Shown one piece after another: positions 10,281 to 42,226 of a stretch of 42,226 nt of DNA. The stretch comes from an uncultured Candidatus Saccharibacteria bacterium (GTDB taxonomy: Bacteria > Patescibacteriota > Minisyncoccia > Phycocordibacterales > WO2-35-19): NCBI GenBank assembly GCA_964365465.1, contig CAYIPT010000003.1:1-42226 (forward strand), read 5' to 3'. Under the pieces are notes generated by a model. The model did not search any database. It worked only from the letters and a program-made list of their open reading frames with translations, and was not told where the DNA came from. The first letter of the stretch is position 1, and the number at the start of each line of letters is the position of its first letter. The position numbers and the translations under genes were made by a program.

Positions 10281-10308
10281 TAGTAAAAATTTGTGCTAGA
10301 TTACCCAT

Positions 10309-17368: not shown

Positions 17369-18322
17369 ATGAAAACAAAAGTTTTTGCAAGTGCGGCTAT
17401 GATCGCAGCTTTGATTGTTTTGGGGAGTCCGATATATTCGTTTGCCCAAACAACCGGAACCACAACCAGTGTTTCAAATCAGGTTCAAGCATTGCTTAAC
17501 CAAATAGAGAGTTTGCAGACGCAAATTCAAACACTCCAAGCTCTTCAGGGGCAAATTATAAAAGCGCAGGGAGAGGTAAGCCAATCGTTGAAGCTTATCC
17601 GCAGTTTGAGGCAGGGTATGAGTGGAGATGATGTCAAGGCCTTGCAAGCAATTTTGGCGGCCGATACCAGCATATATCCGGAAGGAATGATAACTGGTTT
17701 TTATGGCCGACTGACTTCAGAAGCGGTCAAAAGATTCCAAAAAAAGTATGGCATTGAAATGCTCGGTTTTGTGGGTCCCAAAACTATTAAAAAACTGAAT
17801 GAGGAAGTGGGTAAGCTATCACTTTCACAAGAGAATGATGACAATGATGAAGATAATGATGGAGATAAAAATGATAAAAAATTCTGTGCCAAAATTCCTC
17901 CGGGTCATCTAATAGCTCCCGGTTGGCTCAAGAAAAATAACAGTGTCAAACCCATCGTGCCCGAATGTCAAAAATTGCCAAAAGGCATAGAAGATAAATT
18001 GGATGATGATCGTGGCGCCATAACTGATACGACGGCACCTGTTATTTCCGGGGTGACTACTTCAAACCTCTTGGCTACTACTACCAATATTGTCTGGATC
18101 ACTAATGAAAAATCCAACAGCAAGGTCTGGTTTGGCACCACCACTCCGCTTAATTTAGGTCTACCGGCTTCTATAAGTTCGTCCGAGAAAGTCAAAGGTC
18201 ACAACCTATTGCTTTCCGGCTTGGCCACATCAACAACTTACTATTACATAGTAGGTTCATCTGACGAAAGGGGAAACACGGCGACATCAAGCCAAAACTT
18301 GTTCACCACTTTAGCAAACTAG
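17369..18322 (+). CDS. Secreted protein with peptidoglycan-binding domain and C-terminal Fn3-like domain
   Basis: Signal peptide; LRQGMSGDDVKALQ..TGFYGRLTSEAVKRFQ..VGPKT; DTTAPVIS..WITNE..LSGLATSTTYYY. Confidence 0.85.
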   Translation: MKTKVFASAAMIAALIVLGSPIYSFAQTTGTTTSVSNQVQALLNQIESLQTQIQTLQALQGQIIKAQGEVSQSLKLIRSLRQGMSGDDVKALQAILAADTSIYPEGMITGFYGRLTSEAVKRFQKKYGIEMLGFVGPKTIKKLNEEVGKLSLSQENDDNDEDNDGDKNDKKFCAKIPPGHLIAPGWLKKNNSVKPIVPECQKLPKGIEDKLDDDRGAITDTTAPVISGVTTSNLLATTTNIVWITNEKSNSKVWFGTTTPLNLGLPASISSSEKVKGHNLLLSGLATSTTYYYIVGSSDERGNTATSSQNLFTTLAN

Positions 18323-18920: not shown

Positions 18921-19826
18921 ATGGCCCACGAAAGTGTTCTTTTAAAAGAAGCAATAGATGGGCTTGAACTGGAAACGGGAGATGTCTATTTGGACGCGAC
19001 TGTCGGTTCCGGCGGACATTTAGAAGAGGTCTGGCTAAGAATGAAAGAAAGAGTGACGCTTTGCGGAATAGATGCGGATGAAATGTCCGTGGCTATAACC
19101 AAAGAGAAGTTGGATCTTTCAAAAGCCAAATCAAAACTGGCGGTGCTCAATTTTAGGAATATTGATCAAGCACCGGAAATCTTGGACATAAAAAATCCGA
19201 CCAAAATTTTATTTGATCTAGGTTGGAGTTCTGACCAGTTTGATGAGGGCGGAAGAGGATTTAGTTTTAAGAAAGACGAACCTCTACTGATGACTTTCAA
19301 AAGCAGGGTCAGTGAGGAAGATACTACCGCCTACGATGTGGTAAACCGATGGGAGGAGGAAAGTTTGGCCGATGTCATTTATGGATACGGCGAAGAAAAA
19401 TACGCCAGAAGAATCGCCAAGGCCATCGTTGAGACCAGAAAGAAAAAAAAGATTGGGACTTCGGGCGAGCTGGCGGAAATTGTAAAAAAAGCGGTGCCCA
19501 TATTTTACCGCTTTGGCAGAATTCATCCAGCCACCAGAACCTTTCAAGCTATCAGGATAGCGGTCAATGATGAATTGCGGGCTCTGAAAGAAGGTATCAA
19601 AAAGGGGTTTGATATTTTGAAAGAGGGTGGGAGGATAGCCGTGATTTCATTTCATAGCTTGGAAGACAGGATAGTTAAAAATTTTTTTAAATCGCTAGTA
19701 GCTGAAAATAAGGGAGAAATTATAAATAAAAAGCCCATCATACCAAGCGAAGATGAAATAAAAAAGAATCCAAGATCAAGAAGCGCCAAGCTAAGAATCC
19801 TTCGAAAATCTCATGATAAATTATAA
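18921..19826 (+). CDS. rsmH: 16S rRNA m4C1402 methyltransferase
   Basis: HESVLL.E, DATVGSGGH, HPATRTFQAIRIAVN, SFHSLEDRIVK, NPRSRSAKLR. Confidence 0.97.
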   Translation: MAHESVLLKEAIDGLELETGDVYLDATVGSGGHLEEVWLRMKERVTLCGIDADEMSVAITKEKLDLSKAKSKLAVLNFRNIDQAPEILDIKNPTKILFDLGWSSDQFDEGGRGFSFKKDEPLLMTFKSRVSEEDTTAYDVVNRWEEESLADVIYGYGEEKYARRIAKAIVETRKKKKIGTSGELAEIVKKAVPIFYRFGRIHPATRTFQAIRIAVNDELRALKEGIKKGFDILKEGGRIAVISFHSLEDRIVKNFFKSLVAENKGEIINKKPIIPSEDEIKKNPRSRSAKLRILRKSHDKL

Positions 19827-22570: not shown

Positions 22571-25318
22571 ATGGAATTTCCTCTGCCAAAAACTCCTTTC
22601 AAAAACACGGAAGATGAGATAACTCATTTGCGCCGTTTAATTGCCGAAAAGGAAAGAGCGCTGGAAAATATAGGCCTTAAAAAAGAATCTCTAGCGCCAA
22701 CCAGAGAAACTTTGGCGGAATATAAAACAGTGCCGGCCGGCGCGACTCTTCATCCGGAATATGAAATAAAAAAAGAAGAATTAGAAAAAATAGTCCTTAA
22801 ACTTTTTCCCGAAGAACATGATAAGCAAATCTCGGAGCTGGTTTTGCTGGCCAAAGAAAAAGGCATAAAAAATGCCCTTTCAGTGGTTGAAAAAATGGCA
22901 AATTTTCATATTACGGATGATTTTCACAGATTTATGGCCGAATATTTAAAAGAAGGATTCACCATACCGGGGCTGAATGTAAAAGAAAAAATTTCAAAGG
23001 GGCTCAATATGGCTTTGTATGAAATTTTAATACAGGAGGAAAGTGAAAAAGATAATATTAAAAATACTTTGGAAGAGGTGATTTCGGGCATGGAGCAATT
23101 TTATGCCGGTATGCTTTCCATTGCCGATTCGGATAAGCGCGAAGAAAGCTGGATGTCTTTGGAAATTGCCAATGCCAATTTTTCCCAAGAAATAGTTTTT
23201 TACGCAGCCGTGCCGAGCGCCCGCAAAAATCTTTTTGAAAAGCAAATTTTATCAATTTTTCATAACGCCAAAATTGCAGAAAAACCGGATGATTATAATA
23301 TTTTCAACGAAACCGGTCACACTGCCGGCGTCCGCGCCTCTTTTACAAAAAACCCCATTTATCCCCTGAAGACCTATGAAAGTTTTATGCACGATCCTCT
23401 CAATGTCATTCTTTCTTCATTTTCAAAAGTGAATAGAGACGGCGAAGGAGCCGCCATCCAGCTTATTTGGTCGCCGGCAGGAGAAAAATATGTCAAAAGA
23501 TACAAGAGCGCTTTGGATAAAATCCAAAAGGGCGCGCCTCTCAAAGAGGCCATAGACATACCCGATAGCATATCGGGAGAAGTTCTGCATACTTTCAAAG
23601 ATCTTTTCTCGTCTTCCAAAAAGAAAGACGAAAAGGGGGAAGAGAAAAAATCGGAACCCATTGATCAGGGAGCGGTAGAAGAAATAAAAAATAAAATCTC
23701 GGCGCCCATAGTATTATGCAATTTGCGTTTGCTGGCATCATCCGGCACCAAAGAGGAAGCGGAAGAAATATTAAGTTCCCTTAAATCAAGCTTCAATCAG
23801 TTTGATAACACTCTAGGCAACGCCTTAGAGTGGAAAAAAGAAGAAAAGGGGGGATTGAGAAATTTGGTCAGAAATTTCAGTTTCCGCATTTTTGACAATA
23901 ATAACGCTTTGCCAATGAATTTGAGAGAAGTCACTTCCATTATGCATTTTCACACCAAAGCGCTCTCTGCTTCCGAGGGTTTGCGTCAATCAAGGTCGGC
24001 AACCGCGCCAGCGCCTCTTGATATTGCCAAAGAAGGAATTTTGCTTGGCGTAAACAACCACAAAAATATAAATACAGAAATAAGAATGTCGGAAGACGGC
24101 GATCGCCTCAGACATTTTTATTGCATAGGCCAGACTGGCACCGGTAAAACCTCTTTGATTAGAGAAATGATAATTCAAGATATGAAAATGGGTCATGGAG
24201 TTTGTATGATTGACCCGCATGGCTCCGACCTTCAGCAGGTAATGGCCAATGTGCCGCCAGAGCGCTTTGACGATGTCATTTATTTTGATCCAGCTTACAC
24301 GGCGCGGCCTATGGCTCTCAATATGCTTGAATATGACGAAAATTTTCCGGAACAAAAGACATTTGTGGTTAATGAGCTTTTCAGCATTTTCAGAAAACTT
24401 TATGGCGCTATACCGGAATCAATGGGTCCCGCTTTTGAGCAATATTTCAGAAACTCGGCTCTTCTGGTGATGGATGATCCGACCTCGGGCAACACTTTGG
24501 TTGATATGTCTCGGGTTCTTTCAAATAAGCCATACAGAGACCTTAAAATATCAAAATGCAAAAATCCTCTGGTTAAGCAGTTTTGGGTCAATGCCGAAAA
24601 AACCACGGGCGAACAGGGTTTGGCCAATTATGTCCAATATGTAACCAATAAATTTGATGTCTTCCTGGCCAACGATATTATGCGGCCGGTTATTGCCCAG
24701 GAAAAATCATCCTTCAATTTTCGCGACATTATGGATAACAAAAAAATACTTTTGGTTAATCTTTCCAAGGGGCGGCTGGGAGATATAAACGCCAATCTTA
24801 TCGGTTTGGTTTTGGTTGGCAAAATTCTTATCGCCGCTCTTTCGCGCACCGATTCCTTCGGCAAGGACTTTCCGCCTTTTTATTTATACATAGATGAATT
24901 TCACAATATAACCACCGATTCCATTTCCACCATTCTTTCCGAAGCAAGAAAATATAAACTTTCTCTTATAATTGCCCATCAATTTATTGCCCAACTGGAA
25001 GAGGGGATTAAAAATTCGGTTTTTGGCAATGTCGGTTCAATTTGCGCTTTTAGAGTGGGCGCCGAGGACTCCGAAGTTTTGGAAAGTCAATTTGCTCCCG
25101 TTTTTTCCGCCAGTGATTTGATGAATATAGACAATCTTAACGCTTATTTGCGGCTTATGGTAAATGGCAAACCGGCAAAACCTTTTAATATAAAAATACC
25201 TCCATGGTCGCAAGGGAACAGCGAACAAGTAGAAAAACTGAAAGAGATGTCTTATATAAAATACGGCAAACCCCGCGAGGAAGTTGAAAAACTTATTTTG
25301 GAGAAATATAAAATATAA
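22571..25318 (+). CDS. TrwB/TraD/HerA-FtsK superfamily P-loop ATPase (coupling-protein-like)
   Basis: GQTGTGKT, IDPHG, LYIDEFHN, SEARKY.LSLIIAHQ, FGNVGS..AFRVG.ED. Confidence 0.85.
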   Translation: MEFPLPKTPFKNTEDEITHLRRLIAEKERALENIGLKKESLAPTRETLAEYKTVPAGATLHPEYEIKKEELEKIVLKLFPEEHDKQISELVLLAKEKGIKNALSVVEKMANFHITDDFHRFMAEYLKEGFTIPGLNVKEKISKGLNMALYEILIQEESEKDNIKNTLEEVISGMEQFYAGMLSIADSDKREESWMSLEIANANFSQEIVFYAAVPSARKNLFEKQILSIFHNAKIAEKPDDYNIFNETGHTAGVRASFTKNPIYPLKTYESFMHDPLNVILSSFSKVNRDGEGAAIQLIWSPAGEKYVKRYKSALDKIQKGAPLKEAIDIPDSISGEVLHTFKDLFSSSKKKDEKGEEKKSEPIDQGAVEEIKNKISAPIVLCNLRLLASSGTKEEAEEILSSLKSSFNQFDNTLGNALEWKKEEKGGLRNLVRNFSFRIFDNNNALPMNLREVTSIMHFHTKALSASEGLRQSRSATAPAPLDIAKEGILLGVNNHKNINTEIRMSEDGDRLRHFYCIGQTGTGKTSLIREMIIQDMKMGHGVCMIDPHGSDLQQVMANVPPERFDDVIYFDPAYTARPMALNMLEYDENFPEQKTFVVNELFSIFRKLYGAIPESMGPAFEQYFRNSALLVMDDPTSGNTLVDMSRVLSNKPYRDLKISKCKNPLVKQFWVNAEKTTGEQGLANYVQYVTNKFDVFLANDIMRPVIAQEKSSFNFRDIMDNKKILLVNLSKGRLGDINANLIGLVLVGKILIAALSRTDSFGKDFPPFYLYIDEFHNITTDSISTILSEARKYKLSLIIAHQFIAQLEEGIKNSVFGNVGSICAFRVGAEDSEVLESQFAPVFSASDLMNIDNLNAYLRLMVNGKPAKPFNIKIPPWSQGNSEQVEKLKEMSYIKYGKPREEVEKLILEKYKI

Positions 25319-25329
25319 AAAACGCCCGG

Positions 25330-25569
25330 CTAGCGAACGATGCTAGCCGGGGTAGAGCGATGAATATTGGGCAGAACAAGCTGATTGGGGTGCTTTTCTC
25401 TCCGCGCCCTCAAGATGCTCCCCACTCCGATCCTGACTTGGTGAAATAGTTCAGGGTCAAAATCTGACTTGCGGAACGCTATGCCGAATGCATTCCCAAA
25501 GCCAACCCCTGTTCTCACCAGCTCAGCAACGGAATTAGACAAAGAGAATAACTCTTTTTCGTAATCCAT
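25330..25569 (-). CDS. Hypothetical 79-aa protein
   Basis: ATG 11 nt downstream of a consensus -10 box; fills the intergenic gap; ends in the hairpin CCCGGCTAGC/GCTAGCCGGG. Confidence 0.55.
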   Translation of the reverse strand: MDYEKELFSLSNSVAELVRTGVGFGNAFGIAFRKSDFDPELFHQVRIGVGSILRARREKHPNQLVLPNIHRSTPASIVR

Positions 25570-25580
25570 ATCTACTTTCT

Positions 25581-25608
25581 ATTATACCATATCAACATTT
25601 TCTGTCAA
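25581..25608 (-). promoter_or_regulatory. Consensus sigma70 promoter with extended -10
   Basis: Minus strand TTGACA-N16-TATAAT with TGn before the -10; DnaA-type box TGTGGATAA at 25616-25624. Confidence 0.7.
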
Positions 25609-25760
25609 ATAGAAATGTGGATAACTCGCTACTAAACGCTGAGCGTCTAGTATAAAATAAAGACAGGTTTTATTATTAATAATCCCGATTTCCGTTTAGG
25701 AAATCGAGGATCCACGATAAATATAAAAAATTATTATTTATCGGGATTAATCTTAACATT

Positions 25761-26012
25761 ATGGATTGGCAAAGTTTTGTTACTCCCGCAGATCCTCCGT
25801 TTTTTGCGGGAGCTGTGGGATTGGTGTTGGCGGTTGTGATTTTGTGGTCGTTGGTTTGGAAGGGTATGGCCCTTTGGAAAGCGGCCCAAAAAAGAAGCAA
25901 AGTTTGGTTTGTTGTTTTGCTTCTTGTCAATACTGTCGGCATTCTGGATATTCTGTATTTGTATGTATTTAGCAAGAAATCCGGCCAATCGGTTGAAGGG
26001 CCGAGAATGTAA
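25761..26012 (+). CDS. DUF5652-like small membrane protein
   Basis: WSLVWKGMALWKAA....K.WFVVLLLVNTVGIL.ILY. Confidence 0.85.
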   Translation: MDWQSFVTPADPPFFAGAVGLVLAVVILWSLVWKGMALWKAAQKRSKVWFVVLLLVNTVGILDILYLYVFSKKSGQSVEGPRM

Positions 26013-26045
26013 ATAAAAAATTGCCCCGCGCGAGCGGGGCAATTC

Positions 26046-26119
26046 GGGCCTGTAGCTCAGCTGGCTAGAGCGCTGCTATGGCATAGCAGAGGTCGCCCGT
26101 TCGAACCGGGTCAGGTCCA
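26046..26119 (+). tRNA. tRNA-Ala(GGC); probable integration site
   Basis: Acceptor GGGCCTG/CAGGTCC with G3.U70; anticodon arm CTGCT-ATGGCAT-AGCAG (A32-U38); T arm GCCCG-TTCGAAC-CGGGT. Confidence 0.95.
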
Positions 26120-27692
26120 CATCGTCGGAATTAGAGACAGCAAACTGCTCAAATAACCTTGTGTAGCTTTGTATTTTATCGGTTCGATAACCTTCTTTTT
26201 GGTCATACCACAATTTTTCCTCAAAGATAAAGAAAAACATCTTATGTTTTTCAACCAAAGGCAATTTTTTCCAAACAACATATGGACTTTTTAGAAAATT
26301 GGTAGATTTATCCAATGCAGTTCGATAAGGGATTGAATAGTCAGTTTTTCCAATAAGCTGATCGTCCAATATTTCTATTTTGTTTAAGATTTCTTTCAGT
26401 TGGCCTTTATATGCCCGAGTTAACTGATCATCAGTTGAATTAACGATAAGATCTGTGAGCCTCTTTGTTTTTTCTTCAAGAAGGGCTTTCTCTTGTTTTT
26501 TCTCCATATCTCTCTCTACAAACGCAGATATTTCTTGCTTCCATGTTCGGTCAAAAACCAGTTTAACCACATCGCCCACGTTTTTCTTGAGCTTTTGTTG
26601 TTTTATGATTGTATCAAGCTTTTTTTCTACATCGTCTCCAAACAATGATTTTCTGTACATCTTGCAGTCCCTATTCTGACAAAAGTAGTATGGGCGCTTG
26701 TACAATCCTTTGTTTTTCGTTGTTGTGGCCCCCGTAAGATGTTTACCACAACAGGCACACACGATTAAACCTCTGGCCGGAAATTCATCTGTGATATCCT
26801 TCCTTATCCTTTTACCCGTCAATTCATTGTTTAATCTTTTTTGATTTAACTCGAAAGTTTCAGCTGAGATTATAGCTTCGTGGTGGCCTTTTCTACGAGA
26901 TACTTCCCAAGGCAGATATTCAATGTCACCCATATAGAAGGGGTCTTTTAGCATGCTGGTAAATTCATCCGTATACTTTTCGGGATATTTTCCTTTCCAA
27001 AATCCTTTTTCCATAAGATATCTACATCCGTCAACCCTTCTTATAAAATTACCAGTGGAAAAACTTTCCAAGGCGTGCCTGATAATCGGGGCCTCTTTTT
27101 TGTTGGGAACAGCCAGAGTTCCGCATTTAGGATCTTTCACCATTTCATATCCTCTTTTGGCTACGAAAGCCCAATACCCTAACTCTAGGCGGGCTTTTGT
27201 TTTTTGAATAACTTGCCTTCTGTTTTGATGTCTTTCCAGTTCAGCTTGCGCCGCCATGATAGTCTCTACAAATCGTCCCTCATCGCTTTCATCAAATTGG
27301 AAATTTAAACATTTCAAAACCACATCCCTTGCTTTAAATACCGCTCTAAGTTTTAGATGAAATTCGGTATCTCTAGCAAATCTTTTTAGATCGTCGAATA
27401 TAACCAAGAACTTTTTATGGGGATTTGCGTCTATATAGGCGAGCATCTCTCTCATTGCCGGTCTTTTCATAAAGTCACCACCCCCGGAGTAGCTGTCTCT
27501 GAAAGATCGTTTGTAAGTTACTTGAATAGAATTGAGTTCCTTGACGCATCTCCCTTCCTGGGTTTGCAATCCAGTGCCGTCAATTTCCTGTCTTTTACTC
27601 GATACGCGGGCGTATACTAAACCCTCCATACCTTCATAAGGATTTTCTATCTTAGACTTCTGGGTTATTTGGCTGTTTGCTTTGAACGACAT
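26076..27692 (-). CDS. Large serine recombinase (resolvase, recombinase, Zn-ribbon and coiled-coil domains)
   Basis: YARVSS..Q catalytic motif, SGG....RP, DDLKRFAR, HEAIIS.ETF, CACC...YYFC....C. Confidence 0.93.
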   Translation of the reverse strand: MSFKANSQITQKSKIENPYEGMEGLVYARVSSKRQEIDGTGLQTQEGRCVKELNSIQVTYKRSFRDSYSGGGDFMKRPAMREMLAYIDANPHKKFLVIFDDLKRFARDTEFHLKLRAVFKARDVVLKCLNFQFDESDEGRFVETIMAAQAELERHQNRRQVIQKTKARLELGYWAFVAKRGYEMVKDPKCGTLAVPNKKEAPIIRHALESFSTGNFIRRVDGCRYLMEKGFWKGKYPEKYTDEFTSMLKDPFYMGDIEYLPWEVSRRKGHHEAIISAETFELNQKRLNNELTGKRIRKDITDEFPARGLIVCACCGKHLTGATTTKNKGLYKRPYYFCQNRDCKMYRKSLFGDDVEKKLDTIIKQQKLKKNVGDVVKLVFDRTWKQEISAFVERDMEKKQEKALLEEKTKRLTDLIVNSTDDQLTRAYKGQLKEILNKIEILDDQLIGKTDYSIPYRTALDKSTNFLKSPYVVWKKLPLVEKHKMFFFIFEEKLWYDQKEGYRTDKIQSYTRLFEQFAVSNSDDVDLTRFERATSAMP

Positions 27693-33949: not shown

Positions 33950-34261
33950 TTAAGTCGAGACGGTATTTTTGACCGATTTGTTTCTTTTCTTCTTCGGCCA
34001 ATTAGGACAGAATTTGATCAAGAACTTGATGGTTGACTCGCTACTGCTGTGAACCCAGAAACGCTCAAAGCACTTCGGGCATTCATAGATCACAGCTGAC
34101 GGGTTTGTACTAAGACTGAAACCGACAACTTGCTTTACCACCTCATCACTTGCTCCCAATGCGCTCCACCCTTCACAATTTCCGTTTTCACAACAGAAGC
34201 CTTCAGAGTGTGGGATTCCGTATATTTCAGCTCCCCACGATCTTACTTTGAGTTCAGGCAT
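33950..34261 (-). CDS. Cys/His-rich small protein, paralogue 3
   Basis: MPELKVRSWG..IPHS..CCE...C..YECPKCFERFWVH..CPNWP; AAGGAG RBS upstream. Confidence 0.75.
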   Translation of the reverse strand: MPELKVRSWGAEIYGIPHSEGFCCENGNCEGWSALGASDEVVKQVVGFSLSTNPSAVIYECPKCFERFWVHSSSESTIKFLIKFCPNWPKKKRNKSVKNTVST

Positions 34262-34530
34262 TTTGTGCTCTCCTTTTTTGGAAAGTTTGGACACCATCTT
34301 TGAGCATATTCGAGAAACGATTCTCTGCTCAAATGAACCCAAAACAGACTGAAGCACTCTGGACACCGAAAGATGAGTTTGTCATCTCGTATACCTACGA
34401 GATCTTTCCATGCATCGTGCGTCAAAACAAGTCTGAAAGAACAATTTTCAGACTCGCAACACCACCCGTTTGAGTGCGGTATTGATTCATCAAAGAACAC
34501 GCCCCAAGACCTTGGATTTAGCTTTGACAC
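34243..34530 (-). CDS. Cys/His-rich small protein, paralogue 2 (GTG start)
   Basis: VSKLNPRSWG..IPHS..WCCE...C..FRCPECFSLFWVH..CPNFP. Confidence 0.75.
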   Translation of the reverse strand: MSKLNPRSWGVFFDESIPHSNGWCCESENCSFRLVLTHDAWKDLVGIRDDKLIFRCPECFSLFWVHLSRESFLEYAQRWCPNFPKKESTKCLNSK

Positions 34531-34820
34531 GGTGCAGTATCCTTTCTTGGCCAATTCTTGGAAACCATCATGTCCTCGACATTCATGTCGTGAACATGGA
34601 ACCAAAATTTCTCAAAACACCTCGGGCATTCAACGATCATCTTGCCCGCAATTGACTGGTCACGTTTAACAATGGGTTCGTGAGCAAATCCAACCATATG
34701 GTCATAAAGTCTCATACCAAGAGTTGGACGCCAATAACATTCTGGATTTTTGCATTCCCATCTAGCTGAATACGGGATTGCTTCAGTCCAGACCACACCC
34801 CAAGACTTGAGTTCTGACAT
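34518..34820 (-). CDS. Cys/His-rich small protein, paralogue 1
   Basis: MSELKSWG..IPYS..WEC....C..VECPRCFEKFWFH..NWP; GGAGG RBS upstream. Confidence 0.75.
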   Translation of the reverse strand: MSELKSWGVVWTEAIPYSARWECKNPECYWRPTLGMRLYDHMVGFAHEPIVKRDQSIAGKMIVECPRCFEKFWFHVHDMNVEDMMVSKNWPRKDTAPCQS

Positions 34821-35219: not shown

Positions 35220-36215
35220 CTATCGCGAGTTTTGGAGTTTAAGCAACAACGCGTTGACTTGAGCTTGCAGAATTTTGATTTGCTCTTGAAGAGATAGGGT
35301 TGAGGGAGCTAGACATGAAGCGCTTGAAAGCAATGGGTTGATTCTGGCTCTGGTTTTGGGGCCGACAGAACCGTAACCTGTGGTCAAAGGAGTACCAGAA
35401 GAGACAATTCCCTGGGCTGCCTGGAATTTTTTGACTGCCGCCTCGGTGAGAGGTCCGAAGAAGCCCGTGTTGTTTCCAGTATCCAGATGGCCTTTGGAAA
35501 TGAGGAAGTTCTGCAGGTTGGTGACATCCTGCCCCTTGAGGCCCCGATAGAGATTGCGGACCAGGGAAGAAATAATTGCTCCCGGAACACAGGCCGTTCC
35601 TCCGCCGCCAGTGCTCCCACCCCCGCCTCCACCCGAACTTCCTCCGCCCCCGCCCCCGCCCGATGAACTGCCGGAAGAACTCGATCCGCCAGTGCCGCTT
35701 CCGCCTGAAGATGGGCTATTTATGGTGTAAGTTCCATTGACAACAGCGCTCAAGGTATCCGCGCCGCCCGCGGCTACATTTGAGTCGGTGGTGGCGCCGG
35801 CAGTGTGGTTAAAAATAATGCTGGCCGTTCCCGCCAATAATGCCTTAAAAGTAAGAGTGACCAAAGCGCCGGAACCCCGGTACTTGTTGCCCCCTGCGGT
35901 TACCTGAGAAAAAGTGATTCTGCCGAAATTCGTGTCAACGCTGTTAGCCAAAGTCATTGACATTAAACTTCCCGGAGCAATCTGGACCCCAGAGACGGAA
36001 GCATTGGCATCCTGCAACTGGAGAAGACCGGGATTGTAATTGAGATATCTCAAATCAACGCCGTCAATGGATGCCCCTTGGGTGTCAAGATTTACAACAA
36101 CTGAAAATGTGTCTCCCACATTAACACTTTGCGATGAAGGAGAAACTGACAATGTGGCGGCCGACGCCAAAAACGGCAACAGTAGGCCAATCGCGATAAA
36201 AGATATTTTTTTCAT
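35220..36215 (-). CDS. Secreted cohesin - Gly/Ser linker - peptidoglycan-binding domain protein
   Basis: Signal peptide; cohesin-type pattern V.VGDTFSV.V...LNYNP.LLQ...GSG.L.TLTFKA; LYRGLKGQDVTNLQNFL..TGFFGPLTEAAVKKFQ..VGPKTR. Confidence 0.85.
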   Translation of the reverse strand: MKKISFIAIGLLLPFLASAATLSVSPSSQSVNVGDTFSVVVNLDTQGASIDGVDLRYLNYNPGLLQLQDANASVSGVQIAPGSLMSMTLANSVDTNFGRITFSQVTAGGNKYRGSGALVTLTFKALLAGTASIIFNHTAGATTDSNVAAGGADTLSAVVNGTYTINSPSSGGSGTGGSSSSGSSSGGGGGGGSSGGGGGGSTGGGGTACVPGAIISSLVRNLYRGLKGQDVTNLQNFLISKGHLDTGNNTGFFGPLTEAAVKKFQAAQGIVSSGTPLTTGYGSVGPKTRARINPLLSSASCLAPSTLSLQEQIKILQAQVNALLLKLQNSR

Positions 36216-36266: not shown

Positions 36267-38171
36267 CTACTCTCCCGCCAACATCCAATTATTGGAAAGG
36301 TAGGCAAAATCAAGAGAATTTACCAAGCCGTCCCTATTAACGTCAGCTAGGGTATCACTGGCGCCCCATTTGCCGTTCATATAGGAAAAGTCCAGGGAAT
36401 TAATCAGTTGGTCGCTGTTGAAATCGCCGGCCGGTAAAGTCGGGAAATTGACATCAAGAACCGAAATGTTCCTCAAATCAACGCCTCCAAGCAATTTAGA
36501 CAAATAACCGGAAACCACTGGCCGGAGAGTGACTGTCGGCAAAAGCCCTGCCGGCACATCTATCGTGTATTGCCCGGAAGTATTCGTGGTAAAGCTTGCC
36601 TGATATATCTTTGAACTGAGATTTGACGGGTTAAGAAATTCAACTGTTCCTGACACATTTCTCTGGCTGGCAGGCGTTCCCTCCGGAACCAAGATTATTC
36701 TTCTTTGGACTAAAAGGGAAAGCATCGGCGTAGTGGCGCTCACTGATGCCGACCTTGCCGAAACATTGCCCGCGACATCAACGGCGGCTACCTGATAGCT
36801 GTATGTAGCGCCGGCAGTCAGTCCCGTATCCAAATAGGCGGTGCTGGCCGTGGTGCCCAAAGAGACACCCCCGCGGAATATTTGGTAATCGGACACTCCA
36901 GACACTGCCTGTCCCGCACCGGTTGGATCTGTGGAAGCGGTCCATGAAATTTGGATTTGGTTTTCACTGGTAGCCGTAGCTGTGACCCCGGCGGGTACCG
37001 TCGGAGAAGTGGTATCCGGCAAAGTTTGAGTGGTCAATGAGTTGTCAAATGAGAGGGCCAGGTTTCCTGCCGCATCGCGGGATCTTATCATGTAATGATA
37101 AACGGTGCCGGCCGAAAGACCCGAAAGAGTCGCCGAGTGAGAAGTGGCTAAAGAGGAATTGAGCGCGGTTGAAGCGCCGTAAGAAGCGGTAAGCCCATAA
37201 TCAACCTGGGTATCGCCCGGTTCGTTGGTGGTCCATGTAATGGTGGCGCCAGAGACGGTGACTCCGGAGACGGCAATGGCGGAAATGGTGGGAGGCGTAA
37301 TGTCCGGCGGGGCTTGAGTGGTGGCACTCGCCGCCGATGAATAAGCGGATAAATTGCCGGCGGCGTCTGTCGCTCTGATTCTGTACCTATAAATGGTGCT
37401 CGCGGAGAGGCCTGTGTCAGAATATGAATTGACGGCGGGAGTGGCGACTTGAGAATAAGTGGTGCAGGTGGCGGACCCCGAACACCTTTCAACTCTGTAT
37501 CCGGTTACCGCCACATTATCAGTGGAGGCAGTCCAGGAAAGATTTATTTGGGAAGAGGACATAACATTCAAAGAAGGGGTGCCCGGAGCGGTGGGGGCGG
37601 TGATGTCAGGAAGGGAAGTAACAGTATAAGAGCCGCTTCCCGCGGAAGCCAGCAAATCCCCGCCCAGTCCGGCAACATTTGTGTCGGTGCTGTTGCCTAG
37701 AGAGAAATCAAAAGCGGTATTTGAAATCCCAACAGCCAAAGCGCGGAAAGTGATAACGGCCAGAGTGCCTGAACCGTTATAAGTGGAGCCGGGATTAGCC
37801 AGCTGAGAAAATTGGATTGAACCGCCCGTGTTGTCCGCCAAGTTTATTATAGTCAAAGGCATAAGAGCTCCCGCCGCAATCTGCGTTCCTGCTGACGCTC
37901 CATCGGCATCCACCACCTGCAAAACACTCGGATTAAAGTGAAGATGGTTAATATCAACTCCATAAGCTCCCTGCCCTCCGGTGTTAACGGCGATATTTAC
38001 AGTAAAAGTGTTATTGACTGAGGCGGAATAGGAAGACGGCGAAAGAGAAACAGATGCGGTCGGCGACACTTGGGCCAGCTGGGTGCCGGCTGGCATCCCC
38101 GCCAAAGTCGCCTGCAATGTGAGCAATATGGCGGTAAGGATGGATACGATTTGTTGCAATGTTTGAATCAT
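36267..38171 (-). CDS. Secreted cohesin - three Fn3-like domains - Ig-like - dockerin protein
   Basis: Cohesin paralogous to the neighbour; three D.T.P...W...L...T.Y.Y...D.AGN repeats; C-terminal GDFNSDQLINSLD / DVNRDGLVNSLD pair. Confidence 0.85.
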   Translation of the reverse strand: MIQTLQQIVSILTAILLTLQATLAGMPAGTQLAQVSPTASVSLSPSSYSASVNNTFTVNIAVNTGGQGAYGVDINHLHFNPSVLQVVDADGASAGTQIAAGALMPLTIINLADNTGGSIQFSQLANPGSTYNGSGTLAVITFRALAVGISNTAFDFSLGNSTDTNVAGLGGDLLASAGSGSYTVTSLPDITAPTAPGTPSLNVMSSSQINLSWTASTDNVAVTGYRVERCSGSATCTTYSQVATPAVNSYSDTGLSASTIYRYRIRATDAAGNLSAYSSAASATTQAPPDITPPTISAIAVSGVTVSGATITWTTNEPGDTQVDYGLTASYGASTALNSSLATSHSATLSGLSAGTVYHYMIRSRDAAGNLALSFDNSLTTQTLPDTTSPTVPAGVTATATSENQIQISWTASTDPTGAGQAVSGVSDYQIFRGGVSLGTTASTAYLDTGLTAGATYSYQVAAVDVAGNVSARSASVSATTPMLSLLVQRRIILVPEGTPASQRNVSGTVEFLNPSNLSSKIYQASFTTNTSGQYTIDVPAGLLPTVTLRPVVSGYLSKLLGGVDLRNISVLDVNFPTLPAGDFNSDQLINSLDFSYMNGKWGASDTLADVNRDGLVNSLDFAYLSNNWMLAGE

Positions 38172-38204
38172 GTTTTTATATTAATTATACGCCTTGATTA
38201 TACC

Positions 38205-38942
38205 CTATGGCGTCCAATTTTGAACCATAATGACGTAGTCAAGGGAGTTGACGATGGTGTCGTGGTTCAGGTCGTAAATGGCATTGTTTTGGTTCCAGGC
38301 CGTAATCATGAGAGATAAGTCAATTGAGTTAACGAGGCCGTCATTGTTGAAGTCGCCTATGATGGGGACGGAATATAAAGCGAGATAGTTCTCCACGCTC
38401 CAGCCGTCGGCGCCCGAATCATAATTCACATTCCACCAGAAGTATCCGTCGGCACTTGTTCCTCCACTGACAATAGTTCCAAGAGAGCCGAGAGATTGAG
38501 TTCCTAATAATGCGCCGGTGGCAGAAGCGGCCGCCCTAACATTGAGGTTTGATGTTGTTTGCACGCGCTGGCCAGCGAAAAACTTGATGGAGGGGGGAAT
38601 GGAGGGAGAGATTGCCTTGCTCACCTGGGGCGAGAAAACACTTTCATTATTTGAAGTGTCGTAGGCGCTGACGGAAAAATAATATGTCAGGCCGTCTGTC
38701 AAATTATTAAAAGTATAAGTCCTGACATTGCCGGCATTCACAGTATTTGAATATCCGCAAAGTCCGCAAATCTTTGGGTCAGTGCCGGTCCTTTGACCGG
38801 TGCCGTAATATATCTTGTATCCCGAAAGGTCCGGCTCAGTATTAGCGTTCCAAGTCACCGTGGCCGAACCGGCCAAAGCGGTGTTTGCATAAAAAGCGAA
38901 AAACAATACCGCCAGTAAAACCAAAACAAATTTATTTTTCAT
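38205..38942 (-). CDS. Secreted Fn3 - SH3-like - dockerin protein
   Basis: Signal peptide; WNANTEPDLSGYKIYYG..TYYFSVSAYDTSNNES; LNVR..GY.WW.V.Y..G..GW; GDFNNDGLVNSID / DLNHDTIVNSLD. Start placed at ATG 38942. Confidence 0.85.
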   Translation of the reverse strand: MKNKFVLVLLAVLFFAFYANTALAGSATVTWNANTEPDLSGYKIYYGTGQRTGTDPKICGLCGYSNTVNAGNVRTYTFNNLTDGLTYYFSVSAYDTSNNESVFSPQVSKAISPSIPPSIKFFAGQRVQTTSNLNVRAAASATGALLGTQSLGSLGTIVSGGTSADGYFWWNVNYDSGADGWSVENYLALYSVPIIGDFNNDGLVNSIDLSLMITAWNQNNAIYDLNHDTIVNSLDYVIMVQNWTP

Positions 38943-39028
38943 ATTATTTGCCATTAATATTAACGCCATTAATTATATATTAAGGAAAATTGGTTGGCTA
39001 GCGCTCCTGTGGATGCAGAAACCTGATT

Positions 39029-39093
39029 CTACGTCCCGCCGACATATTCACCCCGCACCACTTTTGTTGGTGCTGGGGTTCATACGCTCCGAC
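39029..39093 (-). pseudogene. Orphan gene-tail copy D (VGAYE[hairpin]YVGGT*)
   Basis: Shares CCCGCCGACATATTCA and CATACGC with 41040-41060; interrupted by a 28-nt hairpin. Confidence 0.65.
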
Positions 39094-39095
39094 TT

Positions 39096-39148
39096 GCCCT
39101 GTGAAATTCCGCGAAGCGGATACGAGCAAAACTCGTATTTCACAGGGC
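39096..39148. repeat. Branched (Y-shaped) REP-like palindrome
   Basis: GCCCTGTGAAAT...ATTTCACAGGGC enclosing TCCGC-GAA-GCGGA and TACGAG-CAAAA-CTCGTA. Confidence 0.7.
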
Positions 39149-39162
39149 TTTATCGCATTTTC

Positions 39163-39486
39163 TCAGACCTTTACACCGTAAGTTTTGATTTCATTGATTA
39201 AACTGGAATATTTACTGCTGAAATCTGCAGGATTAAAGCCGATAGGTTCAATAACCCACCCTCTGCCGTATGGCAACTTACTATACAAGTAATCCAAAGC
39301 AGACCATGGGCTTTTGAAATGAGGTGAAATAACCGCCACATCAATATCACTGTCCTCTCTGGCGTTTCCTTTGGCATATGAGCCAAACACATATACACCA
39401 ACAATCGGAAAATTATCAGCCTGCAGAAGCTTCTTATATTCTGTGACTTCAGATATTATTTTTTGAGGCAACTTTCTTTTAGCCAT
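39163..39486 (-). CDS. Minimal nucleotidyltransferase (MNT, antitoxin-like)
   Basis: YVFGSYAKG.AREDSDIDVAVIS. Confidence 0.9.
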   Translation of the reverse strand: MAKRKLPQKIISEVTEYKKLLQADNFPIVGVYVFGSYAKGNAREDSDIDVAVISPHFKSPWSALDYLYSKLPYGRGWVIEPIGFNPADFSSKYSSLINEIKTYGVKV

Positions 39487-39660
39487 GATATTAATTTTTC
39501 TGTGATGTTAAGATATTTTTGAGCGTATTCTTTTGTGGCCAGTTTGCGAAATTCCCATTTTTCATCTGAATTCTTTGTCATCAAAAAGTTTCTTCGCCAC
39601 CCTCAAATCCTCATCGGATGACTCTTTATAATACGCTATGGTTTTTTCAAATTCCGACAT
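39456..39660 (-). pseudogene. Internally deleted HEPN-domain gene
   Basis: N-terminal MSEFEKTIAYYKESSDEDLRVAKKLFDDKE joined out of frame to C-terminal DEKWEFRKLATKEYAQKYLNITEKLISWLKE; overlaps the MNT start. Confidence 0.75.
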
Positions 39661-39775
39661 GATGTGATTATATCATATCCCCAAATAAAAAATCAAATTA
39701 GTAAATGATAAACAAAACAACAAAACTTTACAGAAAGATAGTGTCAAAGGCGACCTTTGACATGTTTTGACAGGG

Positions 39776-39906
39776 TTAATTAACGGTGACGCCGGAAGGG
39801 GCGGAGGTCCCGTCTCCGATCTTTGATCGGGACGAGGATCCTCGATTTTGTAACTCCGACTTCTTCGGAGACAAAATCGGGAGAGGAGTGGTGTCGGGCG
39901 TTCCCC
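39776..39906 (-). pseudogene. Orphan gene-tail copy C (GTPDTTP[hairpins]SAPSGVTVN*)
   Basis: Aligns with 42156-42210 once the ~75-nt palindromic insert (about 39808-39882) is removed. Confidence 0.7.
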
Positions 39907-39960
39907 ATTTATCCCGTCCCGCTTAGCGGGACTGGAAATTGTCCCACAGCGGGCCACTCC

Positions 39961-40956
39961 CTACTTCTTTTTCTTCTTTGCTCCCAGCAGCTTTTTCACC
40001 TCGCGGTCAAAGTCGGAAATGTAATCATGGTCCTGAATAACGCGGTATTTGTCATATTCTTTGAGCGCCAGGGCTTCGGCCACTTCGTGGCTGACTTTGC
40101 CGGCATTGCTTAAAATACCCTTTCCCAAAAGAGCCATGTATTCATCAAGCTTCTTAATCCAGTCCTTCATTGTCATTGCCAATTCGCTTTTGGCCTGGAC
40201 TTCGGCAAATGACAGGTATGCGTCAACAATACGATTAAGCATTTGGAGCTCCTTTTCATTCAAATAGTTTTTCGCTATGTAAATATCGCGCTGAATTGGA
40301 TTCAAGCCAGAAAAATTGGTCAGCCCCATTAGCGGCTTTTTACTATCGGCGCGTTCGGTTATAATTTCCGCCGCGGTCTTGCCGGATACCGCGTAATGCA
40401 TCTTATTTTGAACTGTTTTAAAAAACTTCTCGGTCTCTTTGGCATCCTTGCGATAGTCAACACTTGTAGCGTAAATATCGGTTACTTTTTGGTACAGCAT
40501 CCTTTCACTGGAGCGAATATCGCGAATACGCTCCAATAATTCTTCAAAATAACGCGATTTATATCCGCCCTGTTTAAGACGGATATCGTCCATGGTAAAA
40601 CCCTTGACCACATATTCCTTCAGACGGTCAGTCGCCCATTGGCGAAAAAGCGTGCCACGCTCGGAATTTACCCTATAGCCCACGGCGATAATCGCCTCCA
40701 ACCCGTACATCTTAGTATGGTACTCTTTCCCGTCCGCGGCAGTTATTAAGAATTCCTTAATAACTGAATCCTGCCTAAGCTCCCCTGTCTTAAATATGCT
40801 TTTAAGATGCATGTTAATATTGGGAACAGTTGTCCCAAACAGCTCTGCCATGAGCTTTTGCGTCAGCCACACATTTTCATGCTCAAAACGAACCTCTACC
40901 CGGGTTTTTCCGTCTTCCGTGGTGTAAATGATGATTTGTGATTTTTCTTTGGCCAT
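39961..40956 (-). CDS. RhuM/virulence-family DNA-binding protein
   Basis: VWLTQKLMAELF, IIAVGYRVNS, FRQWAT, KGFTMDD.RLK, IRDIRSSER, VQNKMHYA, AKNYL. Confidence 0.9.
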   Translation of the reverse strand: MAKEKSQIIIYTTEDGKTRVEVRFEHENVWLTQKLMAELFGTTVPNINMHLKSIFKTGELRQDSVIKEFLITAADGKEYHTKMYGLEAIIAVGYRVNSERGTLFRQWATDRLKEYVVKGFTMDDIRLKQGGYKSRYFEELLERIRDIRSSERMLYQKVTDIYATSVDYRKDAKETEKFFKTVQNKMHYAVSGKTAAEIITERADSKKPLMGLTNFSGLNPIQRDIYIAKNYLNEKELQMLNRIVDAYLSFAEVQAKSELAMTMKDWIKKLDEYMALLGKGILSNAGKVSHEVAEALALKEYDKYRVIQDHDYISDFDREVKKLLGAKKKKK

Positions 40957-40985
40957 TTTTAAATAATCAAGGATGAAGGATAATT

Positions 40986-41069
40986 TTAATTCACCGATAC
41001 TCCGCTGGGCGCCGCGGGCGGAGTAGTGTCGGGACTTCCCCCGCCGACATATTCATACGCGCCGATGTC
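40986..41069 (-). pseudogene. Orphan gene-tail copy B (DIGAYEYVGGGSPDTTPPAAPSGVSVN*)
   Basis: Intact 27-codon tail with no start codon, 20 nt after the previous stop; 31 nt identical to the window end. Confidence 0.8.
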
Positions 41070-41089
41070 CTTTGTTGGTTTCGAGTTTC

Positions 41090-42064
41090 TTAAACCTCGC
41101 TTATAACCTCAAATCCTTTAAAACTGCCGGTAATAGCCAAGCCAATAATTTGCTCCGCCAAATTTCTCTCTTTTATCTTTCTTGCCGTTTCATTGAGCGT
41201 AGCTCCAGAACCGAGCGCATCGTCTATTAGTAAAACGGTTTTAAATTTTCTGGCATCTTGCATAACTATGGTCCTGCTGGCATTTTCTATTCTGTCCTCA
41301 AGTTTAACCAGTGTTTTCTGCGGCACGGCTACTGGCGTTTTTATTTTAACAAGGTCAATCACCGGAAGAGGCAGCCGGAGCTGCTTTTCCAACTCTTTCA
41401 TAAGCTGGACCTCCCGCTTGACCGTCGGCGGTATAAATCCTACCGCGTTTACTTCAAACTTTTCTGCCAAAAAATTTATTTTGGGCTTGATTTCTTCAAC
41501 CAATTCTTTCATCAGATTTTTGTTCTGGCTTTGCTTGGCGTAAAGAAGCAGTTGGCCGAGTTTTGTTTTACCGAATCGTTCAATGCTGTAGAAATCCAGA
41601 TAAAACACTTTATCCAGAAAGACTTCATCAAAAGTGTGTTTTATTTTATACATGCCATCTACCAGCCCGTCTTTTTTATACATTGAATATTTCTTCAAGG
41701 TTTGGATATATTCTGTGGCTGTTTTTTCAACCGGCAATTTTTGCTTCTGGCACCAATAGGCAAATCCCCCCACTCCCTCTTGCCTTTCGCCGGAAGGAGT
41801 AATTACAAGAAAATTACCGCCGATTATTTTTTTCAAATTATCGCCAATTAGAAACGTCCCCGCCTCTTTAATTTTTTTCGGAGAAACAGAGTAAAAAACC
41901 TTTGGCGGTTTGCCGGCCTTATATATGATTTTTTCTTTAAGCAGCTTGTTAATCTGCCTGTGCACGGCCTGCCGACTGATGCCTAGATAATCAGAAAGTT
42001 CCCCAGCCGCGGCTTCTGGTCTGGTTTTTAGGTATTCAATTATTCTGTCACCCGTCTTTTTCAT
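41090..42064 (-). CDS. Winged-HTH plus phosphoribosyltransferase-fold protein
   Basis: ELSDYLGISRQAVHRQI HTH; VLLIDDALGSGATL PRPP-binding loop. Confidence 0.85.
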   Translation of the reverse strand: MKKTGDRIIEYLKTRPEAAAGELSDYLGISRQAVHRQINKLLKEKIIYKAGKPPKVFYSVSPKKIKEAGTFLIGDNLKKIIGGNFLVITPSGERQEGVGGFAYWCQKQKLPVEKTATEYIQTLKKYSMYKKDGLVDGMYKIKHTFDEVFLDKVFYLDFYSIERFGKTKLGQLLLYAKQSQNKNLMKELVEEIKPKINFLAEKFEVNAVGFIPPTVKREVQLMKELEKQLRLPLPVIDLVKIKTPVAVPQKTLVKLEDRIENASRTIVMQDARKFKTVLLIDDALGSGATLNETARKIKERNLAEQIIGLAITGSFKGFEVISEV

Positions 42065-42155
42065 GTTATAAATGTAGCATAATCTTAAAAAGTTTACAAT
42101 ACACTGTAAACTGTAAACTTAGTGATAAAAAAGAAAAGATTAATGATGAAGAATA

Positions 42156-42226
42156 TTAATTCACGGTGATACCGGAGGGGGCGGAGGGAGAAGTGGTGTC
42201 GGGACTTCCCCCGCCGACATATTCAT
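42156..42226 (-). CDS. 3' end of a probable secreted-protein gene entering from outside the window (tail copy A)
   Basis: Translates to (Y)EYVGGGSPDTTSPSAPSGITVN*. Cannot tell whether the upstream part is intact. Confidence 0.6.
   Translation of the reverse strand, partial: EYVGGGSPDTTSPSAPSGITVN

Follow-up and report, generated by a model that had tools for sequence, protein, structure and literature searches.

A candidate split fibronectin type III tag and socket for the surface anchoring of secreted proteins in Patescibacteria

The window, i.e., the whole stretch of 42,226 nucleotides that was analyzed (contig CAYIPT010000003.1 of GenBank assembly GCA_964365465.1), stems from an uncultured Candidatus Saccharibacteria bacterium. 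It encodes a small secreted protein with a fibronectin type III (Fn3) domain and a dockerin (the tip protein), an extender, a wall-binding scaffold, and several copies of a short tail sequence, one of which forms the C-terminus of a protein. All features of the proposed system are located on the minus strand (Table 1). The evidence leans towards a natural split Fn3 domain: the tail would be a tag that supplies the first strand, the truncated Fn3 domain of the tip protein would be the socket that lacks it, and strand complementation between the two would tether cargo proteins to the cell surface. It can about as readily be accepted as doubted that this is a general surface-anchoring system of Patescibacteria and some other phyla, with a 15-residue strand A tag and with strand-A-less receptors whose tether would be a lipid, a membrane helix, a dockerin or a domain that binds peptidoglycan. 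The direct observations are the make-up of the sequences and their conservation, a tail that stands exactly at the C-terminus, two parts that tile one Fn3 profile, and genes that are linked. An initial annotation had proposed that proteins with such a tail plug into the incomplete Fn3 domain and are thereby loaded onto a cohesin-dockerin scaffold, and this docking interpretation was supported in part by the sequence comparisons.

The Fn3 domains of the extender and of the tip protein differ at their N-termini. The extender modules open with PDITAPTAPGTPSLNV..INLSW, PDITPPTIS.. and PDTTSPTVPAGVTAT..IQISW, and each of them is complete, with a PD(I/T)T.P linker and strand A. In the first module, the Pfam fn3 match begins at A195 of APGTPSLNV (profile position 2) and has the Trp at position 20. 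The tip protein likely starts with MKNKF at position 38942, which yields the 245-residue protein P0007, while the full open reading frame (ORF) has 254 amino acids. Its N-terminal region reads ...NTALA followed by GSATVTWNANTEPDLSGYKIYYG, with strand B (GSATVTWNAN) directly after the signal peptide, the cleavage site of which was assigned by eye (A-x-A). The fn3 profile (PF00041) was found with 29.7 bits, compared to a curated cut-off of 25, and the match extends over profile positions 14–75 of 84, beginning at G34 of the 254-residue ORF. The Trp is again at position 20, as in the first extender module, and the first 13 profile positions, which represent strand A, have no counterpart in the tip protein. 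The phmmer alignment of the tip protein with PDB chain 1fnf_A began at chain residue 16, and the alignment of the tip-family profile with 1k85_A began at residue 14; searches of PDB sequences with the tip protein or its family yielded only generic Fn3 and dockerin matches. The initial annotation was thus right that the extender repeats carry their first strand and that the tip Fn3 begins after the signal peptide without it. Judged by its sequence, the tip Fn3 appears to fall short of a regular seven-strand module, strand A being absent. Pfam detected Dockerin_1 in the tip protein (4.5e-8) and in the extender (4.3e-8), and Cohesin in the extender (2.2e-5) and in the scaffold (Table 1). The ESM Atlas model of the tip protein could be aligned to Fn3 clusters with template modelling (TM) scores of 0.78–0.84. 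As a separate observation, the structural neighbors of the tip Fn3 in the ESM Atlas included a cluster of 131-residue proteins with a viral label of 96% (Uroviricota) and a further Fn3 plus dockerin cluster with viral members.

The truncation is shared by a large protein family. A search with the tip protein revealed 158 relatives at E ≤ 1e-3. Among the 120 relatives in the matches listed, six matched the SH3/dockerin part only, and nearly all of the others have strand B straight after the signal peptide (..A(L/F)A followed by G(S/T)A(T)xSWNANTE.DLAGYKIYYG). Strand B lies within the first 70 residues in 111 of the 120 listed homologues, and 74 of these 111 contain a dockerin motif. In N-terminal Fn3 domains the Pfam fn3 match starts at profile positions 8–15, mostly 13–15, compared to positions 1–4 in internal Fn3 domains. 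Many sockets have a length of 166 amino acids and consist of a signal peptide, the truncated Fn3 and a dockerin, with nothing more; as far as can be read from this composition, they have no evident role except that of an adaptor. Many truncated-Fn3 homologues of 119–166 amino acids end soon after strand G or pass straight into the dockerin, and therefore the small sockets should be unable to supply the missing strand from their own C-terminus. The initial annotation had named as an objection to docking that the tip domain fills its gap with its own C-terminal linker; the homologues of 119–166 amino acids, which have no spare strand, speak against this objection.

Genomic loci around tip homologues were retrieved from named genome records via the tip-family alignment, which yielded 76 loci with 867 non-overlapping ORFs of at least 90 amino acids. 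Every truncated Fn3 was joined to an anchor, be it a domain (dockerin or peptidoglycan-binding), a membrane helix or a lipobox. Fusions with a dockerin are present in the window and in four loci (L001, L002, L004, L005). In the window as well as in L004 and L005, the dockerin socket has cohesin and PG_binding_1 genes beside it; L001 has an adjacent cohesin gene, with no PG_binding_1 seen, and the neighbors in L002 matched neither. Fusions with PG_binding_1 were found in six loci (L007, L009, L012, L014, L015, L016). The fusions with an N-terminal membrane helix form a family of 119–155-residue proteins with 123 clusters, the names of which do not go beyond “fibronectin type III domain-containing” or “hypothetical”; a hydrophobic stretch at the N-terminus is present in 103 of 120 members, the median distance to strand B being 12 residues. 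The socket of Smithella (L067) is anchored by a lipobox. Socket and tail were combined in none of 126 proteins and in none of the 867 locus ORFs, which fits one-to-one docking rather than a polymer.

The tail has the general consensus D-T-T-P/A-P-x-A-P-S/T-G-L/V-x-V/I-x-COOH and a length of about 15 residues, and the chain ends four residues after the conserved Gly. When the 40-residue translation of copy 2 from the window was used as a query, there were six matches among 75 candidates, and all six (P0001–P0006) end with the tail. All of them are secreted parallel beta-helix proteins with the ending ...DIGAYEY..PPDTTPPAAPSG(V/L)x(V/I)x. The NCBIfam domain choice_anch_Q (NF041518) is situated directly before the tail in P0001 (44.2 bits, cut-off 25), in P0003 and in proteins of loci L003 and L008; of the window’s own copy 1 gene, only 22 residues are visible. 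In P0013 the slot of the tail, after the DIGAYEY domain, is taken by an SH3-like domain plus dockerin. A profile of the last 70 residues of the six tail proteins had 8848 matches with E ≤ 1e-3 among 1.84 billion representatives, in a search that was not conditioned on the socket; most of the best 150 of these matches are giant multi-repeat proteins, but 14 of the 150 end with the tail at the exact C-terminus. In three proteins (P0196, P0174, P0272) the tail motif runs into a complete Fn3 domain (..DTTPPSAPSNLS followed by TTAVSSSQINLSWTAAT..), indicating homology of the tail to the linker between domains together with strand A. In the 76 loci there are 40 occurrences of the strict motif, of which 39 lie exactly one residue before the stop codon; for a short core motif the respective numbers are 83 and 43. 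At each of the invariant Pro, Pro and Gly positions of the tail all four codons are used, showing that the selection acts at the protein level. The tails are more similar within a locus (0.70) than between loci (0.56), and the difference is also present for the last four residues (0.64 vs 0.43; permutation p ≤ 5e-4).

Tail and socket were then placed on a common hidden Markov model (HMM) of 105 positions, built from 11 complete Fn3 modules with a DTTPP-type linker from the extender, further proteins and locus ORFs. All 44 tails aligned to HMM positions 1 to 11–14, 35 of them to positions 1–13, with one to two residues left over. The best match of the sockets began at position 14 or later in 70 of 75 cases, with a mode of 18–21, and the window tip protein covered positions 15–95. 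In the five sockets with an earlier start the match runs into residues of the signal peptide or, once, into a second complete Fn3. On the level of the profile, the tail and the truncated Fn3 tile one Fn3 domain without overlap, which places the predicted split point in the turn between strands A and B. A strict pattern for a contiguous fusion of tail and socket was not matched in the loci, which contain five internal copies of this Fn3 subtype.

The genes for tails and sockets are neighbors. Endings of the type P(S/T/Q..)G(L/V/I)x(V/I)x-stop are present in 49 of the 867 ORFs, and 45 of these, from 19 loci, also have the D-x-x-(P/A)-P part. Relative to the truncated-Fn3 gene, 40 of the 45 strict tail ORFs are located upstream on the same strand, two downstream, and three on the opposite strand. 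ORFs within an array are not independent; at the level of loci the upstream same-strand arrangement was found in 16 of 19 (binomial 1e-7 against p = 0.25). The complete Wolfebacteria genome (L015) has seven tail genes followed by a 120-residue membrane-anchored socket, L008 has six followed by a socket with a signal peptide, L006 has five, and L023 and L036 have four each. The closest parallel to the window is L003, where a beta-helix tail gene lies 67 nucleotides upstream of the tip homologue. Sorted by record title, 21 loci are of the Patescibacteria type and 55 are others. At least one tail gene was found in 14 of the 21, and L043 adds one that is cut at the contig end; the five of the 55 other loci with tails belong to a “bacterium”, Elusimicrobia, Bdellovibrionales, Smithella and Nitrospira. 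The bodies of the cargo proteins are diverse, including beta-helix and pectate-lyase-like proteins, weak sub-threshold PL14-like and polysaccharide-lyase matches, and many without a family, and 34 of 45 have a signal peptide according to a crude hydrophobicity test. The truncated Fn3 is the sole component common to all tail-bearing loci; the other neighbors vary, and a conserved sortase-like partner is absent from the loci. The co-occurrence of tail-bearing genes with strand-A-less Fn3 genes, which the initial annotation had named as a check, was thus found in many genomes, in the form of same-strand arrays directly upstream.

The following mechanism is proposed. The tail would act as a C-terminal anchoring tag of secreted proteins, equivalent to the inter-domain linker and strand A of an Fn3 domain. 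The socket would contribute the remaining strands (B to G), located at the N-terminus of the mature protein or shortly behind a membrane anchor, and would be fused to a surface anchor. After export by the Sec pathway, the tail would insert as the missing edge strand beside strand B (trans strand complementation), so that the cargo would be tethered non-covalently. Given the fixed length of the tail, its carboxylate would come to lie next to the N-terminus of the socket or next to the socket’s membrane linker. In the window, the dockerin of the socket would hand the cargo to the cohesin of the extender. The extender, in turn, would attach through its own dockerin to the cohesin on the scaffold that binds peptidoglycan. 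The physical binding, its geometry and the cohesin-dockerin relay are suggested by the anatomy of the proteins together with the gene context.

In the window itself, the tail ...PDTT(P/S)P(A/S)APSG(V/I)(S/T)VN-stop is present in four copies. A 38-nucleotide tail probe has zero expected matches in shuffled sequences, and therefore the recurrence is beyond chance. Copy 1 is the only one that is attached to a gene, most of which lies beyond the window edge; it presumably encodes a secreted beta-helix protein of the choice-of-anchor Q type, in analogy to the homologues P0001–P0006, which have the identical type of ending. In copy 2, in-frame stop codons precede DIGAYEY at a distance of 13 codons, and its reading frame differs from that of the phosphoribosyltransferase gene. 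Copies 1 and 2 share 31 identical bases, after which eight of 15 tail codons differ, four synonymously (including TCC/AGC for Ser) and four conservatively, indicating that both descend from functional tails. The remnants are more decayed with increasing distance from the intact gene. Remnant 3 is interrupted by an insertion at 39806–39880 of the minus strand, which could be a small palindromic mobile element: it has about 75 nucleotides and three hairpins, and a 111-nucleotide stretch around it has a folding energy of −46.2 kcal/mol (z = −4.35 compared to shuffles) and no Rfam match. The initial annotation had spoken of a repeated upstream gene tail. The repetition was verified, but only one of the four copies ends a gene in the window, and the copy that had been quoted as a gene tail is a gene remnant, out of frame and with stop codons upstream. 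The repetition in the window reflects insertions of defence-like genes and not a series of cargo genes with tails.

Single genes with matches to candidate defence families (RhuM/PDC-S05, nucleotidyltransferase/PDC-S09 and a PsyrT/ShosT-like phosphoribosyltransferase) are flanked by the three remnants, which probably mark defence-like insertions into a former array of tail genes. Similar arrangements exist elsewhere. A tail remnant lies just upstream of the socket in L002 (1760–1880), and in L004 two remnants (14150–14210 and 19740–19800) lie beside a zinc-finger gene (DksA/TraR type) and a MNT/HepT pair. Toxin-antitoxin, AbiEii, AAA_14/DUF4143 and Fic genes are situated between tail genes in L003, L004, L010, L023 and L036. 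The inserted genes in the arrays are often trailed by a leftover tail copy (38970–42160 in the window, and other loci). The tail DNA is probably a recombination anchor and the arrays are probably hot spots of defence-gene insertion, a role that is separate from, and compatible with, a docking function. In two loci functional tails are followed by a decayed second tail: the tails in question are Gln tails (..APQGLSVx-stop; L006:2810–2860, 4450–4500 and 5790–5840; L023:1212–1250), and the second tail-like stretch reads ..NP(R/Q)GKPSG(L/V)SVx-stop and lies in frame just past the stop codon in L023.

The repeats also recall phage integration. In E. coli, e14 and phage 21 integrate into the 3′-end of icd with duplication of that end. 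As in that case, direct 3′-end repeats flank the inserts in the window, with an identical core and changes of the synonymous type. Unlike e14 and phage 21, the cassettes contain no integrase, and every insert consists of one defence-like gene. The parallel concerns the repetition of the tail only and not docking. No recombinase is encoded in 38970–42226, and the nearest one is a large serine recombinase (26076–27692) about 12 kb away; the repeated remnants are coding 3′-ends and not palindromic sites. Successive site-specific integrations at a gene’s 3′-end were retained as a side hypothesis only: the cassettes lack an integrase, and arrays of tail genes, as seen in other genomes, are a simpler explanation for the multiple copies.

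Other explanations of the conserved tail were weighed against the split Fn3 domain. The tail could be a genuine C-terminal tag that is read by a different partner, such as the cell wall, an enzyme for processing or glycosylation, or some other domain, and the operon linkage would then reflect a shared surface function. A conserved and exactly terminal tail would fit this as well, its direct binding to the socket is a prediction, and six of the 21 Patescibacteria-type loci have a socket and no tail gene (L002 has a remnant only). Nevertheless, this explanation is rather unlikely, given that the truncated Fn3 is the only component that all tail-bearing loci share, that the two parts tile one Fn3 profile exactly, and that the tail has neither the hydrophobic helix nor the basic end of known sorting signals. 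It is still less probable that the tail matters mainly as DNA, i.e., as a 3′-end recombination anchor for gene shuffling or insertion, with the peptide being incidental. The remnants at the defence-like inserts of the window, those in L002 and L004, the decayed second tails in L006 and L023, the toxin-antitoxin, AAA_14/DUF4143 and Fic genes between tail genes, and the greater similarity of tails within than between loci would all fit such a role. However, the use of all four codons at invariant residues and the synonymous and conservative differences between copies 1 and 2, including TCC/AGC for Ser, speak for the peptide; remnants without a gene decay fast, and therefore intact tails must be kept by selection at the protein level. 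Moreover, a DNA role and a peptide role can coexist.

Several observations weigh against the split Fn3 domain itself, and some of them would suit a complete lack of interaction, with a self-sufficient six-strand N-terminal Fn3 and with tails that are harmless linker leftovers after gene truncation. Truncated N-terminal Fn3 domains occur in many phyla without tails nearby: in addition to the six Patescibacteria-type loci, 50 of the 55 other loci have no tail gene within 10 kb, and in view of the tail-free loci the truncated domain may need no partner for its stability. For the tip protein, the ESM Atlas has a fairly confident monomer model (predicted local distance difference test, pLDDT, 0.81), and in a socket subfamily of the L056 type strand B is immediately preceded by a conserved GKI(K/E)A, which might be a short strand of its own. 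The tail motif is that of a generic Fn3 linker. The 76 loci were chosen through the socket, and the tail-gene counts thus relate to socket-bearing loci. The likeness of tails within a locus fits either a matching to the local socket or gene conversion, and the covariation of tails and sockets, tabulated over 19 loci, was too sparse to interpret. As a single case (L016:8617–9957 and 9965–10348), both tails of a locus read ..TGLKV(I/T), and the adjacent membrane socket has AFLEW, with a Glu where others have Ser; Lys and Glu could form a charge pair between strand A and strand B. A lack of interaction is nonetheless very doubtful, since in 39 of 40 strict motifs the chain ends at one and the same residue, since tails with protein-level conservation are found on diverse protein bodies and in diverse phyla, and since the upstream same-strand position of 40 of 45 tail genes is not predicted by random truncation. 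A tag and socket that together would form one Fn3 domain is therefore the preferred interpretation.

Table 1. Tail copies, inserted genes and the proposed anchoring genes in the window.
Feature	Position	Strand	Remarks
Tail copy 1, 3′-end of a gene, 22 codons and TAA, EYVGGGSPDTTSPSAPSGITVN-stop	42156..42226	-	Open at the window edge
Helix-turn-helix (HTH) and phosphoribosyltransferase gene, 324 amino acids, inserted, similar to phosphoribosyltransferase effectors of defence systems, outside the proposed docking system	41090..42064	-	Pfam Pribosyltran, HTH_11; PADLOC PsyrT 6e-15, ShosT 2.2e-6
Tail remnant 2, DIGAYEYVGGGSPDTTPPAAPSGVSVN-stop, without gene body, 27 codons	40986..41069	-	31-nucleotide block identical to copy 1
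RhuM-family gene, 331 amino acids, inserted, candidate defence gene	39961..40956	-	Pfam Virulence_RhuM 4.4e-105; PADLOC PDC-S05 8.8e-138
Tail remnant 3, ..GTPDTTPLP, ~75-nucleotide hairpin-rich insertion, GTSAPSGVTVN-stop	39776..39908	-	Copy split by the insertion
MNT-type nucleotidyltransferase gene, 107 amino acids, inserted, toxin-antitoxin/defence type	39163..39486	-	Pfam NTP_transf_2 1.1e-11; PADLOC PDC-S09 4.3e-11
Tail remnant 4, most decayed, GAYE..insert..EYVGG	39035..39095	-	~65–95 nucleotides upstream of the tip gene
Tip protein (putative socket): signal peptide, Fn3 from strand B, SH3-like segment, dockerin	38205..38969	-	Pfam fn3, Dockerin_1
Extender, 634 amino acids: cohesin, three complete Fn3, dockerin	36267..38171	-	Pfam Cohesin, fn3 (three), Dockerin_1
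Anchor/scaffold: signal peptide, cohesin, Gly/Ser linker, peptidoglycan-binding domain	35220..36215	-	Pfam Cohesin 7.9e-9, PG_binding_1 2.5e-11

The remaining window contains housekeeping genes (MreB, PBP2, Mur ligase, tRNA synthetases) and a mobile-element-like stretch. Scans of the window for promoters and terminators gave results no better than shuffled sequences, and no Rfam match was obtained over 38000–42226. Three overlapping small paralogous ORFs of 138, 120 and 100 amino acids at 33950–34820 on the minus strand have conserved Cys pairs in the motifs ..CCE(N/S).NC.. and ..CP(K/E/R)CF..FW(V/F)H, and had no match in Pfam and PADLOC. At 22571–27692 a gene for a type IV secretion system coupling-protein-like product (915 amino acids) accompanies that for the large serine recombinase (538 amino acids), which suggests an integrated mobile element about 12 kb from the tip and tail region. 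A secreted 317-residue protein (17369–18322, plus strand), which adjoins a cell-division cluster (mraZ/mraW/PBP), has a PG_binding_1 domain and a C-terminal Fn3-like domain after a DTTAP linker.

Patescibacteria are a large and mostly uncultured group of bacteria, which apparently live attached to host cells, and the way in which they retain degradative enzymes at their surface is largely obscure. If the split Fn3 domain is real, it would represent a new class of protein sorting or anchoring signal beside LPXTG, PEP-CTERM, the C-terminal domain (CTD) of the type IX secretion system (T9SS) and cohesin-dockerin, and surface-displayed cargo could be predicted straight from genomes by a short C-terminal tag. 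It would give a function to hundreds of proteins that are named “fibronectin type III domain-containing” or “hypothetical”, and it would extend strand complementation from the building of pili to the anchoring of enzymes. The tag of 15 residues and the socket of about 90 residues might also be usable as a small non-covalent tag in protein engineering. The literature that was searched yielded no account of such a tail or of an Fn3 receptor that lacks strand A.

The completion of an immunoglobulin (Ig)-like fold by a foreign strand is established for chaperone-usher pili, the pilins of which lack the C-terminal G strand. A recent report on Pam pili shows that the donor-strand principle operates in bacteria of the Candidate Phyla Radiation (PMC13278184). 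Completion by a foreign strand was also recently reported for the WxL/Elr pilus of Enterococcus, in which an invariant C-terminal attachment module bears variable payloads including beta-helix classes (10.64898/2026.10.17.759780). As in the donor-strand systems, an incomplete Ig-like sandwich would here take up a strand from another chain. In contrast to the pilus systems, the incomplete fold is an Fn3 that lacks strand A at its N-terminus, the donor would be a terminal tail of about 15 residues on enzymes instead of pilins, and the acceptor is fused to several kinds of anchors; donor and acceptor are not combined in one protein, and a fibre is not expected. No chaperone-like gene was seen in the neighborhoods examined. 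Fragment complementation of Fn3 is reportedly the subject of work by Dutta and colleagues from 2005, and SpyTag/SpyCatcher is an engineered split domain, in which SpyTag forms an isopeptide bond. The tail and the truncated Fn3 resemble engineered split domains in the combination of a short strand-forming tag with the remainder of a beta-sandwich, but the pair is natural and covalent chemistry is not indicated.

With the LPXTG/sortase, PEP-CTERM and T9SS CTD systems the tail shares the principle of a short conserved C-terminal element on unrelated secreted proteins, here after choice-of-anchor Q; the term “choice-of-anchor” is explained for family A in bioRxiv 10.1101/2023.03.06.531300. Unlike LPXTG and PEP-CTERM sorting signals, the tail has no transmembrane helix or basic end, and the chain stops four residues past the Gly. 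Unlike in sortase systems, the conserved partner is a binding domain and not an enzyme. The window also resembles cellulosome-type systems, with dockerins in the tip protein and the extender, cohesins in the extender and the scaffold, and a wall-binding scaffold, and this layout is repeated in L001, L004 and L005. In contrast to cellulosomes, most of the related loci have no cohesin or dockerin and the socket itself is membrane- or wall-anchored, and the cargo proteins have no dockerin of their own, which an adaptor composed of a truncated Fn3 and a dockerin would supply.

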